From positions 1,981,129 to 2,045,128 of the forward strand of contig BCIN01000001.1 in NCBI GenBank assembly GCA_039545335.1: DNA of 64,000 nt. Reading direction: 5' to 3'. The position numbers and the translations under genes are program-made. Numbering within the stretch: position 1 is the first letter of the stretch; every line of letters starts with the position of its first letter. Source of the DNA: Kondoa subrosea (lineage: Eukaryota). Of this stretch, positions 26,501 to 34,438 are shown piece by piece. The notes below the pieces were generated by a model, which ran no database searches, was not told the origin of the DNA, and worked only from the letters and a program-made list of their open reading frames with translations.

Positions 26501-27597
26501 TTGACCAAAAGTAGATCTTGGTTGCGAAGGTTGGGCGTAGAAATCACTTATGGTATGATTTTTCGGAGGAAGCTCCTTCTGCGAGCTGGAGGACAACTTG
26601 GTAGTGCCAGCGCAAAGATCCGAAAAGTGGTTTCGAGGTGGACTTGGAGCGGATTTGATAGTAGCTTGATCACGTATCTGTTTCAATTGACTCATCTCTT
26701 GACGGATAATATCTTGACACTTCTTAGCGCTCAGGATTGTGTTACGAGCGGTCTCGATGACAGCGTTCATGTCTTTGGCGAGATCGTTCCTTGCATCGTT
26801 TCCAGGAGGAAGCTCAGAACGCTTCATGTTATTAGTGCCCGAAGCTGCGTTGCGTGCTTTGTTGAACTTTTCCTCAGTTGCCCTTATCGCTGCTATTGTG
26901 TCTGCCAAATTAGCAGCAGCCTTTGGTGGCGATTGGGAAGTTGCAACTGGAGGTGTATCCATTAGATTAACCAGAGCAGGTGCAACAGGTGTAGTAGAGG
27001 CAGGAGAAGAGATCGTGACAATCTCCAGCTTGACCATCTTCCGATTCTTCTTATCAGGTTGGGCTACGATTCGAAATTTAGTAACGTATAGGAGATGCAA
27101 GTATCACAGAACTGCTCACCTCGTTTGAGGATCTCTTGAACCGGCTGAGAAAGAAAGGTCTGTCAATGGTTTCCACGTCAGTTTGCTTGCGACAACTTCT
27201 CGAATGATATCGAACGCACCGCGTAATCCCTCAAAACGACCGGCTTCGGGTTATACATTTGCACAGTCTCATCTTGATCGTGTAAGAGCAAATAGAAAGA
27301 TTCAGGTTTGAGCGAAAAGAGCGTCTGAGTCCGTTCTTGCAATCCTGCCCCTGTCATCGTCGGACCTTTGTTTAGCTTCACATTGCCTGAGCAACAATAG
27401 AACATACAGAGAGCAGGGGAGGCCAGCGATCCTTCATAGCCAAAGCGTCTGTTGCAAGCGAAAGATTAGCATCTAGACCGAATGCTGTGCGGGGAGGCTG
27501 CAAAGATAGATGGAAGGCTCTCCCCGCTAGACTGCTGTACTCACTTTGAATCCTGGCCGTGAATGAGCTTGAAGACAAACGATTGAACAGTAGCCAT
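23582..27597 (-). CDS. NBR1: NBR1-like selective autophagy receptor (PB1-like N-terminus, ZZ fingers, two FW/NBR1 domains, C-terminal AIM/LIR)
   Basis: MATVQSFVFKL.. N-terminus; ZZ fingers HNATCDLC..RYKCLQCPDWDAC and HVGVTCDGC..RYKC..CPDFDLC; FW domains ATFVEDVTIPDG..FTKVYRMRNTGTEAWP and FVKTFDIANTGSEAWP; tail DDEFVML. Confidence 0.85.
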
Positions 27598-27732: not shown

Positions 27733-30700
27733 ATGGACGACATCCACGTTGTAGACGCTCGCAAGAAGCACGTTACAAATGTTCGGCGTTCTTTAAGTCA
27801 AGACATCCTTCAAAAGACTCCCTTCTCAGTCTGGCTGGTCTTAGCCGTAGTCTTTGCGATCTCTGTACTCTATCTTCGCGTTGTTTTAGCCAAGAAAGCA
27901 GCCTCCGCCAAAGCGGTCTTGAACCAACGAAGAAAAGCTGGGATTCCAGATTCAGACAAGAGACCTTGGAGAGTTGCGTTTGTAGATGCGGAAAAGGCTA
28001 GGTTAAAGAGAGAAAAAGAAAAGAATGATTTGTTGTTGATGCAAAAACGACCTTTGGTGCGATCTGCTACCAGTAATGCCTCATTGGCTGTACCTGCTTC
28101 TCCTTACGGTTCACCGCGAATTGGAGCTAAAAGTCCCCTGTCTTATCAATCGCAGCACAGGGGTCAGTCTAAGCTTTTAATCGCAATGGAGTGCACCTCT
28201 TATGCGATTGTGATGTCGCTGACAGCTTCAGCGTCTTCTCACTCCTTACCACAATCCAGAAGTGCTTCAACTTTCATTGAACGTAATGCATCACCTCGAC
28301 CAGAAACTTATCGACGACCATCCTTCACACCATCGCAATCTCAACTTCATCGTAAGTTCTGTTCACATTCTTACTCTCTGTCATACATTATACTTGATTC
28401 TTGACTTTAAAGTAGAAGAATCACGTCAAGCTTCTCCTGCTCCTTCTCAATCTGGAAAACCTAAGCTTATTCGTTCTCATTCCGAGATATCTTCTTTCGA
28501 ACCAGATCGAAAACGTCAAAGGCAAATAGAAGATGCTTCAACCGATGTAGAAGAAGAAGAGGAGCCTGAAGAACCACAACAAAAAAGAGGGGAGAAGAGA
28601 AAACAAGTAGCTCCTGATACACCTGAGAATGATTATTCGAGTAGTAGTAGAGGAACTAAAGGAAAGAAGAGATCTAAACCTAATCCTGGAGGAAGTGGAA
28701 GGAAAATACCCGGTGCTATTGATGAAAACCAAGATGAGGAAAGTAGTGGGAAAGAGGACGAAGAGATGGATGTGGATTCCAAAGAGAAAGAAGAAAGTGG
28801 AGGGAAGAAAAGATCCAGAGATGAAGATGATGATGAAGATGAAGCATCTGTAGCACCCTCTAGAAGTCCGCCAAAGAAGAAACGAAATAAGAAAGAGAAG
28901 ATCGCTGCTGCTCCGAGTGCTAAAAGTGAAAAGAGCTCCAGAGGACGTCAAAGAGAATCCAAGTGGACTAATCTGGTGGGAGAGAAATTCAGACTGGACG
29001 AAGAGGGTAGAGAAATCAAGCTTGTTGAAGTAAAGGAATGGAGATTGAAGTATCAGATGGTCAGTTTGAGATACTTTCCTCAGCGTAGTATTGATGGTTC
29101 TAATTTCTGCATCTGACAGCCTGCAGACTCTAGACATCCCGACAAAGACCTCAAAGAATTAGTTGTTGTCGAGAGATGGGTCGATGAAGACGAATTCAAT
29201 AGTCTGAAGAAAGCTTCAATGCTAGGTTGGCAGCCTGCACCTGACTCTACTTCAATGGACGAATCAAAAGATGAGGACATCAGCATGTCGATTAGCGAGA
29301 TCGAGGTTAGTCAAGTCGTGGTAAATTGAGTCCTGAAGCTCAAGTGCGCCTCGTCGATAGTCTGCAAATTCTTCTCGCGACTTCACAAAAGGCGAGAAAT
29401 CTCTCTTCTATGCTCGCGGAACTGGAACACCTCTTCGCTCTACCACGCCTCAAGGCAAATTACCGACAGCTTCAGCAGCTACATCCGCATCGCCAAAATT
29501 AGTGAAGTCAGTCATTTATCTTAAGTTCTGCGATCCACACTGATATAGTATGTAGCGGTCGCTTCCGTTTACCTTCTAGTACTCAGGCACCAAGAAGAAG
29601 TCTCGGGCTTTTGCGTGATGCTAGTGGATCAGCACCTCGGCTGAAGAAACGATCTAACACTCCGTCAGATCTGAATGCCTCTCAGAGCTTTGACAGTCCT
29701 TCTGTATCGCTCATCGGATCGAAAGAGCCATCTCCTCTTCCTTCGGCTAGCGCTAGTCCAGTTCCTTCTTTCAGCTTTACTCCCAGTCCTGCGCTAGAGA
29801 AGTCGGAAAAGCCAGTCGAAACAAAACCTGCTTTCTCCTTTGGTCCTACTGCCCCGATAGCAAATGATCAAAAGAAGGAAGAGACCGTCAAACCGAGTTT
29901 CTCGTTTGGCCCTCCAGCAAAGGCATCTGTAGCCGCCGGAGCGCCCTCCTTTTCTTTCGGTACCCAGCCAGCTGTAACGTCGACTGAAGTGAAGACCTCC
30001 GCAGCTGGTAAGTTTGTCGATCGGCGTTATTTTCAACCACTAATTATCATTCTAGCTCCATCACCTTCTTTTTCTTTCGGGCCCGCCCCTGTTAGTAGTA
30101 TACCTGAAGCAAAGAAGGCTGATCCTGGTAAGTACATTCGGTGTATCTGTAAATCTGTGAAGGCTAATCACGCTTTAGTTCCTACTTCTGCATCGCCATT
30201 CTCATTTGGCGCAACTCAAGTTTCTGCTTCTTCTACGCCGCCTGCTACTCAGACTACATTCAACTTTGGTGCACCTGTGCCATCATCAAGTGCACCTAAA
30301 CCAGCATTCAGTTTCGGATCGCCTGCTAAGGTTGAAGAATCCAAGCCGCCTACGAATACATTTTCTTTCGGTACAACATCATCTACTATACCCTCTAGCG
30401 TGAATTCACAAGCATCTAAACCGATCGAAGCGTCCAAGTCTGCCTTCAGCTTTGGCTCGACTCAAGCTACACCAGCATCTCAGCCTCAAGCTACCTTTTC
30501 TTTTGGCGCATCATCTAATCCTACAGCTAATCCGAGTTCCAGTGCAGTCAATCAACCTGCATTCAACTTTGGCACATCGAATACTCAACCTCAGCAAACG
30601 ACACCTGCGTTCTCTTTCGGCGCCTCGTCTAACCCTGCAGCTAATCCGAGTCCCAGTACAGTCAATCAGCCTGCATTCAACTTTGGCACATCAAATACCC

Positions 30701-30957
30701 AACCTCAGCAAACGACGCCTGCGTTTTCTTTTGGTCAGCCTGCTCCTACTCAGACTGGGTTTTCTTTTGGCTCATCCACACCGAATTCAAGCTTTGCTCA
30801 GTCGCCAGTTGCATCGCCAGCTCAGCAACAGCCTGGCTTCAACTTTGGCGCTCCATCCAGTGCTCAACCCGCGTTCAATCCTGGTTCGACAACACCAGGT
30901 GCAACGAACCCAAGTCCTGTTCGGCCTGCTAGGCGGATGCCTGTCAGAAGGAGGTAG
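27733..30957 (+). CDS. Membrane-anchored FxFG-repeat nucleoporin (POM121/Nup153-like architecture), about 8 exons
   Basis: N-terminal TM helix (FSVWLVLAVVFAISVLYLRVVL), basic NLS-like clusters, 16 FSFG/FNFG motifs and a basic tail RPARRMPVRRR*. I checked the splice junctions between the ORFs and they stay in frame. Confidence 0.8.
30496..30735 (+). repeat. Internal 114-bp (38-aa) tandem duplication within the FG region
   Basis: FSFGASSNP(T/A)ANPS(S/P)S(A/T)VNQPAFNFGTSNTQPQQTTPA occurs twice, starting at 30496 and 30610. Confidence 0.9.
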
Positions 30958-31276: not shown

Positions 31277-33437
31277 ATGGAGCATCTGATCGAATTATGC
31301 CATCCTGGTCAAGAAACTCTGACTGACGCTTTGGCCAAAGCTCCGCACTCTCAACCTGCAAAGGTCGCAGAAGAGCTATTCGATGGGCCTAGCAGGCTTA
31401 GCGGCAAAGTCAACCAGCTGTCAATCTCATCTGAACATCAGGCCAAAGATCCAACCTACCCCAGCAAGGAAGAGCTGGACGCTGCTGCTCAGTGTGGTGA
31501 TTTCCCAAACAGACCATCAGATCTCTTTCTAGCCATGTATTTCTCAGTCTTGCGTACTCTTCAACGTCATCCTCTTTCCGGAATGGTTTCACCCTCGCTT
31601 CTTGCCTCATCAGGATGTATTCCTCTTTCGATTATCTCAATCATTCCTGACATAATGAAGCACTATGCTGAGGTAATCATTGGTGCTGAGCATGAAGTTA
31701 TGCTCGCAACCAATTTCTGGGTGGGAAGCAAGAGTAGCAAGATCATCACAGATGCTATGAGAACATTGTCGGCCAAAGCGGAAAAGCGAGGAAAGAAAGT
31801 TGTCTTCAAGCTCATTTACGACAGAGGAAACATCAAGCAGGTAATTGAGAACCATATAGTGGTCAAGGAGGATGTGGTGAGTTTTCCTGCATTACTGTAC
31901 TATGTATCTTATGACAGCAAGATAGTTTACGGGTGAAGAAGTGCAGATACCTAGTCGCGCAGAATTACCAGGTCTAGAACTCGAAGTGGTCAATTACCAT
32001 CGACCTGTAGTAGGCACTTTTCATTCCAAGGTACGGTGCACTTGAAGCTATGTATTTCTAAAACTAATACTTTGATCTAGTACATGGTAGTAGATCGGAA
32101 GATTGCCTTGTTGAATTCCAATAATATCCAAGATCGCTGCAACAGTAAGCATGATTGTCTTACGGGTTACTGGAATTGCTCATTGTGCTTCAGTGGAAAT
32201 GATGGCTCACATGGAGGGTCCAATTGTTCAATCATTTTATGATATGGCGCTACTGAGCTGGGGAATCGCATTGAATCCGCCTCTCCCTCTTCTATCGATG
32301 CCTAAACCTGCATCGTATGAGTACAAATTTGGCCTCGGTCACCGGTACATTGCAAGTAAGAACATTGAAGGTCTAGACCAAGTCAATCCAGCTTCTGCTC
32401 GAGCACAACCAGAGCATCATTCGGGCAAGCCTGTGCAAACCTCGGCGCAAAGGATTGCTGCTATAACAGAACACCTGAGTAAGCAATCTTTGAACAGTAT
32501 CTATATCCATTTCTGAATACGGATTGAACAGACGCAGACCTTCAACCGGACACCAAAGGCACTCTTCCCGAGCACATTGAGATCGAACCTTTTCGACCGC
32601 ATATTATACACGCAGCTCACGAACCGTTCCCAATGGCTTTGGTCAACAGAGAGCCGCATGGTAGACCTGGTCATGGCGATACGGTGAACCCACAAGATGC
32701 AAGTTTCCTTGCAGGATTCCGTTATGCAAAATCTGTACGTGATTGGGAGCCTGCCTTTTCTGCGACATTGTCTGAAACAGCTTGAGCAGAATGTTTTCAT
32801 CCAAACTCCTACTTTTAATGCACCTCCAGTTGTTGAAGCTTGTCTTGACGCAGTCCGAAGAGGCATTGTCTGCGTCCTGTATTTGGACTTAGGCTTCAAT
32901 GATGATGGCGAGCTCTTACCTTATCAAGGTGGTACAAATGAAGACGTATCAGAGAAAATGTACAAGGAGCTAGAGAATGATCCAAATAAGCGTAATTTGC
33001 GTATCTATTGGTATACGGGCAAAGACATGGAGCGTCCTATTAATGCTCGAGAACAGAAGAGAAATTGTCATGTCAAGTTAATGATCGTTGATGATCATGT
33101 AGCAATTCAGGGAAATGGCAACCAAGACGCTCAAAGTAAGTTAGCTTTCTCACTCCAACAAAGAGACGTCCTAAATCTATGCTTGTTTGCAGGCTGGTTC
33201 CATTCTCAGGAGATCAATGTCATGATTGATAGTGAACAAATCTGCAAAGAATGGAAAGCTGGCATTCGTGCTAACCAGAACACGCATCTCTACGGAGAAC
33301 TGGCTTTTGATGGAAAATGGTTAGATCACGAGGGTCATCCTCTTCCTGGTGCCACGGGCGCTAACACAGGCCCTTTCAAGAGTCTGAAAGGCATCAAGGG
33401 AGCAATCAAACGAGTGCAAGGCAAAGGTGGATTCTAG
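31277..33437 (+). CDS. Phospholipase D superfamily protein (two HKD motifs)
   Basis: FHSK|YMVVD..LLNSNN and CHVKLMIVDD..IQGNGNQD..SQEIN; multi-exon. Confidence 0.88.
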
Positions 33438-33557: not shown

Positions 33558-34438
33558 TTACAATTTGGCTATCTCTTTCACACCCTCTTTCTTGAGCAAA
33601 TCCTCAATCTCCAATTCACTCGTGCACAAAATACAGGTATCTGCCAAAGCGCCAACCCGATGCTTCTGATTCACTGCCTGATAATCTTGACTGGCCAACA
33701 TATCGGCGAAATGGAGCAAAGATGGGTAGTGGGCGAGCGCGAATTCATGCCAGATGCCTTGAGTCTTCTCATCCACATCAATCAATTGTCCAACGAGTTT
33801 CGCATTTCCACCTCTTTTAGATCCAATAGTTTTAGCGAAAGCTTGACCATATTGCTGATAAGAAGCTTTCGAGTCTGGATTGAACGAAAGAAGGTTGAAC
33901 ATCGAACATGCGCCTTTGAACGGAAGTGAGGATTCGGAGCTACCGATCCATGAACGGAGTTCAGGTGAGAAGGATAGATCTTGTGAAGATTGTTTGAGTA
34001 TAGGGGAATCTAAGGCTCCAGTGAGAGCAGGTACAGAAGATGGCTCGGGATGAAGAAGGGAGGGATTTATCTTGGTCAGGAAGTCCTTGGTCAGGCGAGA
34101 AGGAATGCCAGCGCGACTGGTCCCTGTGAACAAGTCAGCTTCAGATGAGAAGTTGCTGGTCTAGACTTACAATGCTCCTTGACGATGAAAGAAGAGGAAT
34201 GTCCGGTCAAGATTGCTCTAACAAGCTCTTGCGATTCCTGAGTATCCTCAATCACCATGTACAAATCCCATCGAGTGTTCAGCAGCTGCGAAACCTGGAT
34301 CTTCTCCGGCTTGATGATCCATCGAATAGGTTTAGATAGAACCAAAGGTTTAGCTTTGCTGCCCTTGATGTATTGTAGCAGAGAGACAAGCTGAGAAGGA
34401 GAAGCCAAAGAGAAGAGATGAACAGATGCAATAGGCAT
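33558..34438 (-). CDS. Hypothetical protein with a DUF1330-like (dimeric alpha-beta barrel) C-terminal domain
   Basis: Two exons; MFNLLSF..YQQYGQAF..GGNAKLVG..WHEFALAHYPSLLHFADMLASQDYQAVN..HR..AL. Confidence 0.7.

Follow-up and report, generated by a model that had tools for sequence, protein, structure and literature searches.

A basidiomycete protein family joining a transmembrane helix to FG repeats: a candidate POM121-like nucleoporin of the pore membrane

Gene model and locus

The window (the whole analysed stretch of Kondoa subrosea DNA, 64 000 nt) contains, on the + strand, a gene running from ATG 27733 to TAG 30957; after removal of seven introns it has an open frame of 944 aa. The open frame with canonical short introns is made up of the following coding exons:

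27733-28162, +, exon 1
28226-28351, +, exon 2
28416-29059, +, exon 3
29120-29305, +, exon 4
29361-29506, +, exon 5
29556-30007, +, exon 6
30056-30127, +, exon 7
30179-30957, +, exon 8

Intron lengths are 48-64 nt, and seven out of seven introns fit GTNAGT...YAG. In a grid of intron options, introns 4 and 5 were required for every open model; intron 2 (64 nt) shifts the frame and intron 3 contains a stop, while introns 1, 6 and 7 preserve the frame and can be spliced or retained. An earlier sequence-only reading had spliced pieces of the open-reading-frame track into one protein of ∼940 aa; the single product stands, but it is assembled from eight exons, not three. Searches of the source genome (18.9 Mb, 27 contigs) showed the gene to be single copy.

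Head-to-head with this gene, an opposite-strand gene appears to begin ∼135 bp from ATG 27733 (from window position 27597 leftwards, −). Farther left, also on the − strand, Pfam finds exons with ZZ zinc-finger and N_BRCA1_IG domains, those of an NBR1-like autophagy receptor. The downstream neighbour at 31277-33437 (+) is a phospholipase D-like gene (PLDc_2, E 2.9e-09); at 33561-34160 (−) there is a 200-aa frame with a weak match to DUF1330, under the cut-off (E 0.0087).

Features of the protein

Along the chain we distinguish the following features:

27829..27891, +, transmembrane (TM) helix, aa about 33-53, after a short N-terminus (from hydropathy)
27919..28029, +, conserved juxtamembrane motif RRxxGIPDSDxRPxxVA with a helix, aa 63-99 (from the agaric profile)
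28508..28897, +, disordered acidic/basic region with NLS-like clusters, aa 217-346 (from sequence, and from low pLDDT in a relative)
28955..29239, +, Trp-rich folded domain, aa 366-440, interrupted by intron 3 (29060-29119); family signature MPxDSxHPD...ExW...LAWQ
29394..29589, +, linear motifs YxxGxGTPLR and LxNGRxRLPS, aa 474-522, across intron 5 (from the Microbotryomycete profile)
29833..30849, +, FG domain with 16 FxFG, aa 604-909 (counted in the sequence)
30919..30957, +, basic C-terminal tail VRPARRMPVRRR and stop; tails are alike in 6 Microbotryomycete relatives

Every feature named in the sequence-only reading was recovered: a single N-terminal TM helix, a compact Trp-containing segment (aa 366-440), the NLS-like clusters KRKQ, KKRSK, KKRSR and PPKKKRNKK (all at aa 247-345), exactly 16 FxFG repeats and the basic tail. 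The best 19-residue hydropathy value is 2.65, at aa 35, and the next best elsewhere is at most 0.67, which leaves one TM segment. Net charge is +1 before this segment and +6 after it; from such a charge bias the N-terminus is predicted to be luminal, with the remainder of the protein towards the pore and nucleoplasm. The juxtamembrane motif begins at aa 70, as does the median agaric motif. A linker of >160 residues separates the end of the TM helix (aa 53) from the region of NLS-like clusters (aa 217-346), where we counted seven K[KR]x[KR] motifs; the 71 agaric relatives have at least 3 each, with a median of 5. The two linear motifs at aa 474-522 are candidate scaffold-binding or phospho-regulated motifs.

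The FxFG repeats comprise 12 FSFG and 4 FNFG; in 2000 shuffles of aa 601-944 the mean number of FxFG was 0.2 and the maximum 3. A 114-nt tandem duplication, 88% identical, at 30491-30718 within the FG domain indicates recent repeat expansion. The tail contains RPARRMPVRRR. No Pfam family matched any piece of the gene region.

Relatives and their variation

Used alone as queries, neither exon 1 nor exon 3 recovered relatives. The Trp segment, searched with phmmer against 1.84 billion proteins, gave 29 matches, three of which were discarded, as the Trp domain was absent. Full-length named matches, all hypothetical proteins, came from Pseudohyphozyma, Sporobolomyces, Microbotryum, Meredithblackwellia, Phenoliferia, two Microbotryomycetes isolates, Naganishia and, as a cluster member, Panaeolus. 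With the Panaeolus domain as query we obtained 79 additional proteins among 94 candidates. A species name is present on 73 of the 79, and all 73 belong, we assume, to mushroom-forming fungi. Only one of these proteins, from Lyophyllum, is more than hypothetical or uncharacterised by its NCBI name, which is ‘putative nuclear pore complex protein’; Coprinopsis cinerea CC1G_08166 is a named member of the family. The UniRef names FHA and RanBD1, carried by two relatives, had no support from Pfam.

Taxonomy of four example species places members in Tremellomycetes, Microbotryomycetes and Agaricomycetes, so the family covers two basidiomycete subphyla. There were no named matches from Ascomycota, Ustilaginomycotina, rusts or Tremellales in these single-sequence searches, which cannot show absence. 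In a tree of the domain (28 rows, 84 columns) the window protein pairs with the Naganishia protein with support 96/92, which hints weakly at a tremellomycete host. Judged by sequence, this is an unannotated basidiomycete family.

In the set of 80 agaric-type proteins we called a TM segment at hydropathy ≥1.6 and an FG region at ≥5 FG after the Trp domain. By these thresholds a TM segment is present in 65 proteins, the juxtamembrane motif in 72 and the FG region in 74 (with ≥10 FG in 73); TM and FG occur in one chain in 60 of the 80, and together with the motif in 59. The 20 models missing TM or FG at these thresholds include many that look truncated. A positive-inside charge bias placing the N-terminus in the lumen was seen in 63 of 64 agaric relatives, as well as in the window protein. 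Three models from Roridomyces and Mycena (P0068, P0069 and P0082; 1897-2077 aa) have, close to the C-terminus, another segment of strong hydrophobicity; they are probably annotation fusions with a neighbouring gene.

The Microbotryomycete N-terminal segment is rich in W and Y and of weaker hydropathy (1.32-1.73 in six of seven proteins, two of the seven reaching 1.6); in one member, P0016, the hydrophobic segment is absent. Profile comparison did not detect the juxtamembrane motif in Microbotryomycete members. The Naganishia protein P0010, as annotated, has the TM segment and the domain and lacks the FG tail. The agaric C-terminal helix, located after the motifs, was not detected by its profile in the window protein.

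The basic tail, earlier likened to that of Nup153 and Nup1, is present here and in 6 Microbotryomycete relatives but is not a family-wide feature: of the 80 agaric-type proteins only 5 have it, and of these 5 three are oversized and two have no FG repeats. We presume the tails of the window protein and of the Microbotryomycetes to resemble those of Nup1 and Nup153. The POM121-like architecture proposed for this protein fared better. Sequence comparison supports its conservation in two subphyla of Basidiomycota: the TM comes first, then a disordered linker, the NLSs, a region of scaffold type and finally FG.

Evidence for a single gene

The profile of agaric N-termini, built from proteins selected solely through the Trp domain, matches exon 1 over aa 29-99 (41 bits), and the profile of the juxtamembrane motif scores 40.0 bits against exon 1 (at most 8.6 for 1000 shuffles of this exon). 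Farther along the gene, the two-motif Microbotryomycete profile scores 38.0 bits at aa 474-522, across intron 5 (at most 8.4 for 1000 shuffles); split, it gives 20.6 bits for exon 5 alone and 15.3 bits for the start of exon 6 alone. As profiles of relatives recover both exon 1 and the exon 5/6 junction, the TM and FG halves are parts of one gene.

A set of 66 metagenome loci agrees with the joint arrangement. The motif lies upstream of the Trp domain, at a distance of at most 2.5 kb, in 40 of the 40 loci containing both; the M|P position of intron 3 is shared by 52 of the 66; in 17 of the 66 the second half of the Trp domain and ≥8 FG (12-19) are read in a single stop-free frame. Locus L044 has the motif and the first half of the Trp domain in a single stop-free frame, and in the window gene the TM helix and the motif are both in exon 1. 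Finally, the contigs of three relatives of 1255-1325 aa, with TM, domain and FG, exceed the coding length by only 148-221 nt, and the intron at the intron 3 position is absent; these contigs are presumably spliced transcripts.

Other pore proteins in the genome

A query of the source genome with the FG exon led to two further loci. One (L005:1093-2028, −; G000:C1) encodes an FG nucleoporin that by resemblance is Nup57/Nup54-like. The other (L007:2595-6099, +; G000:C2) encodes a protein of 1126 aa with 11 FxFG, an N-terminal NPYxRP motif and a tail ending in RRIRRLPTRRG; it has an amphipathic helix at aa 39-53 (hydrophobic moment 0.59) and no TM segment (maximum hydropathy 0.95), and Pfam gave no match for it. 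We take this 1126-aa protein to be a basket nucleoporin of the Nup1/Nup153 type. The label leans also on published descriptions (PMC8700311). The gene is likely the genome’s separate Nup1/Nup153-type gene, and the TM-FG protein would thus be an additional one, as POM121 is beside Nup153 in vertebrates. Significant BLASTP matches between the window protein and the 1126-aa protein were confined to the FG regions.

Ndc1 and Pom152 are both encoded in the source genome; Pom34 (PF08058) and TMEM209-type families were not detected there, in searches without positive controls.

Predicted structure

An AlphaFold2 model of a Mycena member (682 aa, 59 sequences) has a long TM helix at 27-66, with core pLDDT 92-97; beyond it the chain is disordered except for another helix, a small domain and, late in the sequence, one more helix. 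With a more diverse alignment (63 sequences) the Trp domain of the relative P0006 was modelled at pLDDT 93-98 as a short hairpin, a long two-stranded beta ribbon and a helix. The structure prediction suggested earlier for the Trp segment was therefore confident in this relative, but it matched no solved structure: in the comparison with PDB chains none was above background, which is not proof of a new fold.

Proposed role and alternative readings

We consider it likely that this gene encodes a basidiomycete single-pass FG nucleoporin of the pore membrane, working much as POM121 does in vertebrates, with its localisation and partners being what we infer from architecture. Its origin was probably independent of POM121. 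Such a protein would be inserted into the ER membrane with its short N-terminus in the lumen; importin alpha/beta, bound to the NLS clusters, would then move the protein along the membrane of the pore as far as the inner nuclear membrane, on the TM-linker-NLS route. This route has been demonstrated with Pom121 and Heh2, and a linker of 53 residues is too short for it (PMC4569319, PMC4695851). The Trp domain and the adjacent motifs may dock on scaffold nucleoporins (Nup170/Nup155 or the Y-complex), a docking that would tie these nucleoporins to the membrane during pore assembly, and the FxFG tail would enter the FG meshwork of the nuclear side and bind karyopherins. In Pom121 the segment aa 215-557, between TM and FG, is described as binding the Nup155 and Nup160 propellers (PMC3003318); it occupies the same relative place as the Trp domain and motifs of the basidiomycete family. 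Less in keeping with this reading are the weak or missing hydrophobic segment of Microbotryomycetes, the Naganishia model that lacks FG, the 20 agaric-type models short of TM or FG, the uneven distribution of the juxtamembrane motif and of the agaric C-terminal helix, the failure to match POM121 or any other Pfam family, and the folded domain, given that the corresponding part of POM121 is described as unstructured (PMC13242641).

One could speculate further, though we regard this as rather doubtful, that Basidiomycota, having no Pom34 and an open mitosis, evolved a POM121 of their own. At the inner nuclear membrane it would initiate the assembly of pores, by way of a small domain of undescribed fold sitting on the propellers of Nup170 or the Y-complex.

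The protein could instead be a second basket nucleoporin, a Nup1/Nup153 duplicate whose amphipathic helix gave way to a TM helix, and which acts mainly in import termination and mRNA export and not in anchoring. Tails of the RRIRRLP type in Microbotryomycetes closely match that of the 1126-aa Nup1-type protein, FSFG/FTFG repeats with S/T/P/A spacers are found in both this and the window protein, and Nup1, Nup60 and Nup153 are described as attaching to the inner membrane via an N-terminal helix (PMC8700311). We nevertheless judge this reading improbable: the BLASTP matches are restricted to FG, none of the five family profiles matches the Nup1-type protein, and agaric members do without the basic tail, with a Nup1-type gene still in the genome. 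An origin by Nup1/Nup153 duplication can, for that matter, coexist with a POM121-like role at the pore membrane.

Less probable still is a Heh2-type protein of the inner nuclear membrane (TM, linker and strong NLSs), whose FG repeats would aid its own passage or draw karyopherins off the pores and whose Trp domain would bind a chromatin or membrane partner. Sixteen evenly spaced FxFG, and ≥10 FG in 73 of 80 agaric-type proteins, speak against it, regularly spaced FxFG and many FG repeats being typical of nucleoporins; LEM and MSC domains were not found by Pfam in the window pieces or in 10 relatives. In its favour, the Trp domain has no convincing match to a nucleoporin fold, and Heh1 and Heh2 also have the TM-linker-NLS layout (PMC4569319, PMC4695851).

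That our model fuses two adjacent genes, one encoding a small protein of the membrane and the other an FG nucleoporin that is soluble, is hardly credible: the model of the window locus was built from sequence alone and the annotated proteins of 15 of 80 relatives have no TM segment reaching the threshold, but the profile matches to exon 1 and across intron 5, the motif preceding the domain in 40 of 40 loci, the three transcript-like relatives, and the successive joins of TM to motif (exon 1), motif to domain (L044) and domain to FG (17 loci) all contradict it.

Implications

With a POM121-like nucleoporin at the pore membrane as the preferred reading, the family has a membrane anchor at one end and, at the opposite end, the repeats of the pore filter. 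Fungi had been believed to be without this design. It is a candidate for the slot left open in mushrooms and basidiomycete yeasts by a vertebrate-only POM121 and a missing Pom34. If the more doubtful reading above is true, and Basidiomycota evolved a POM121 of their own, they would be the third lineage with the TM-FG design, besides vertebrates and ciliates, and the first among genetically tractable fungi. A fungal analogue whose docking domain is folded and conserved would open a role in anchoring and assembly to genetic and structural tests; it would also allow a test of whether, as proposed, membrane nucleoporins are linked to open versus closed mitosis. In addition, some 80 proteins currently called hypothetical receive an annotation.

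The family is real and conserved, and apparently undescribed: we met no title or abstract describing a basidiomycete TM-FG nucleoporin in a literature search that covered subscription journals, including Ustilago nucleoporin work, thinly, so that a mention in a table is possible.

Comparison with known systems

The fungal pore membrane proteins given in a 2025 review are Ndc1, Pom152 and Pom34 (PMC13242641). Pom34 is, like the window protein, a pore membrane protein with a pore-facing disordered part, and it is described as resembling POM121 in architecture without being its homologue (PMC13242641); however, it is double-pass and has no FG domain, while the window protein has a single TM segment. 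Pfam found neither NPCC (PF08058) nor PF09786 in the window protein or in 10 relatives.

Nup1, Nup60 and Nup153 share with the window protein the FxFG repeats and N-terminal membrane attachment (PMC8700311), but attach by an amphipathic helix in place of a TM segment; the best hydrophobic moment is 0.44 in the window protein versus 0.59 in the 1126-aa Nup1-type protein.

The sequence-only reading had taken TM and FG in one chain as a metazoan hallmark. This has to be abandoned, as Tetrahymena TtPom121 (TTHERM_00312730) is described with an N-terminal TM, NLS activity and C-terminal FG, at the nuclear face of pores (PMC5450191), and the reported occurrence of POM121 is limited to vertebrates (PMC2951903). 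In the same source Pom34 occurs only in ascomycetes and is absent from basidiomycetes, whose mitosis is described as open (PMC2951903). By their described layout TtPom121 and TtPom82 are likewise TM-FG chains outside animals, TtPom82 with the order of TM and FG reversed relative to the window protein (PMC5450191, PMC5824931); whether TtPom121 and vertebrate POM121 share an origin is called unclear (PMC5824931). Thus the design was known, from Tetrahymena, and the basidiomycete family is not POM121 by sequence.

The profile search proposed earlier detected no homology to POM121: the Pfam family POM121 (PF15229) gave no match in four window pieces (E ≤1) or 10 relatives (E ≤0.5), and a search of the source genome, run without a positive control, was blank. 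The position of POM121 in the pore is described as still unverified, and its pore-facing part as unstructured (PMC13242641). The likeness to POM121 is one of plan: a single N-terminal TM, the order TM-linker-NLS, a central region, C-terminal FG and a Nup153-type partner gene (PMC4569319, PMC3003318, PMC13242641). What sets the basidiomycete family apart is its occurrence in fungi, its folded Trp domain and its conserved juxtamembrane motif.
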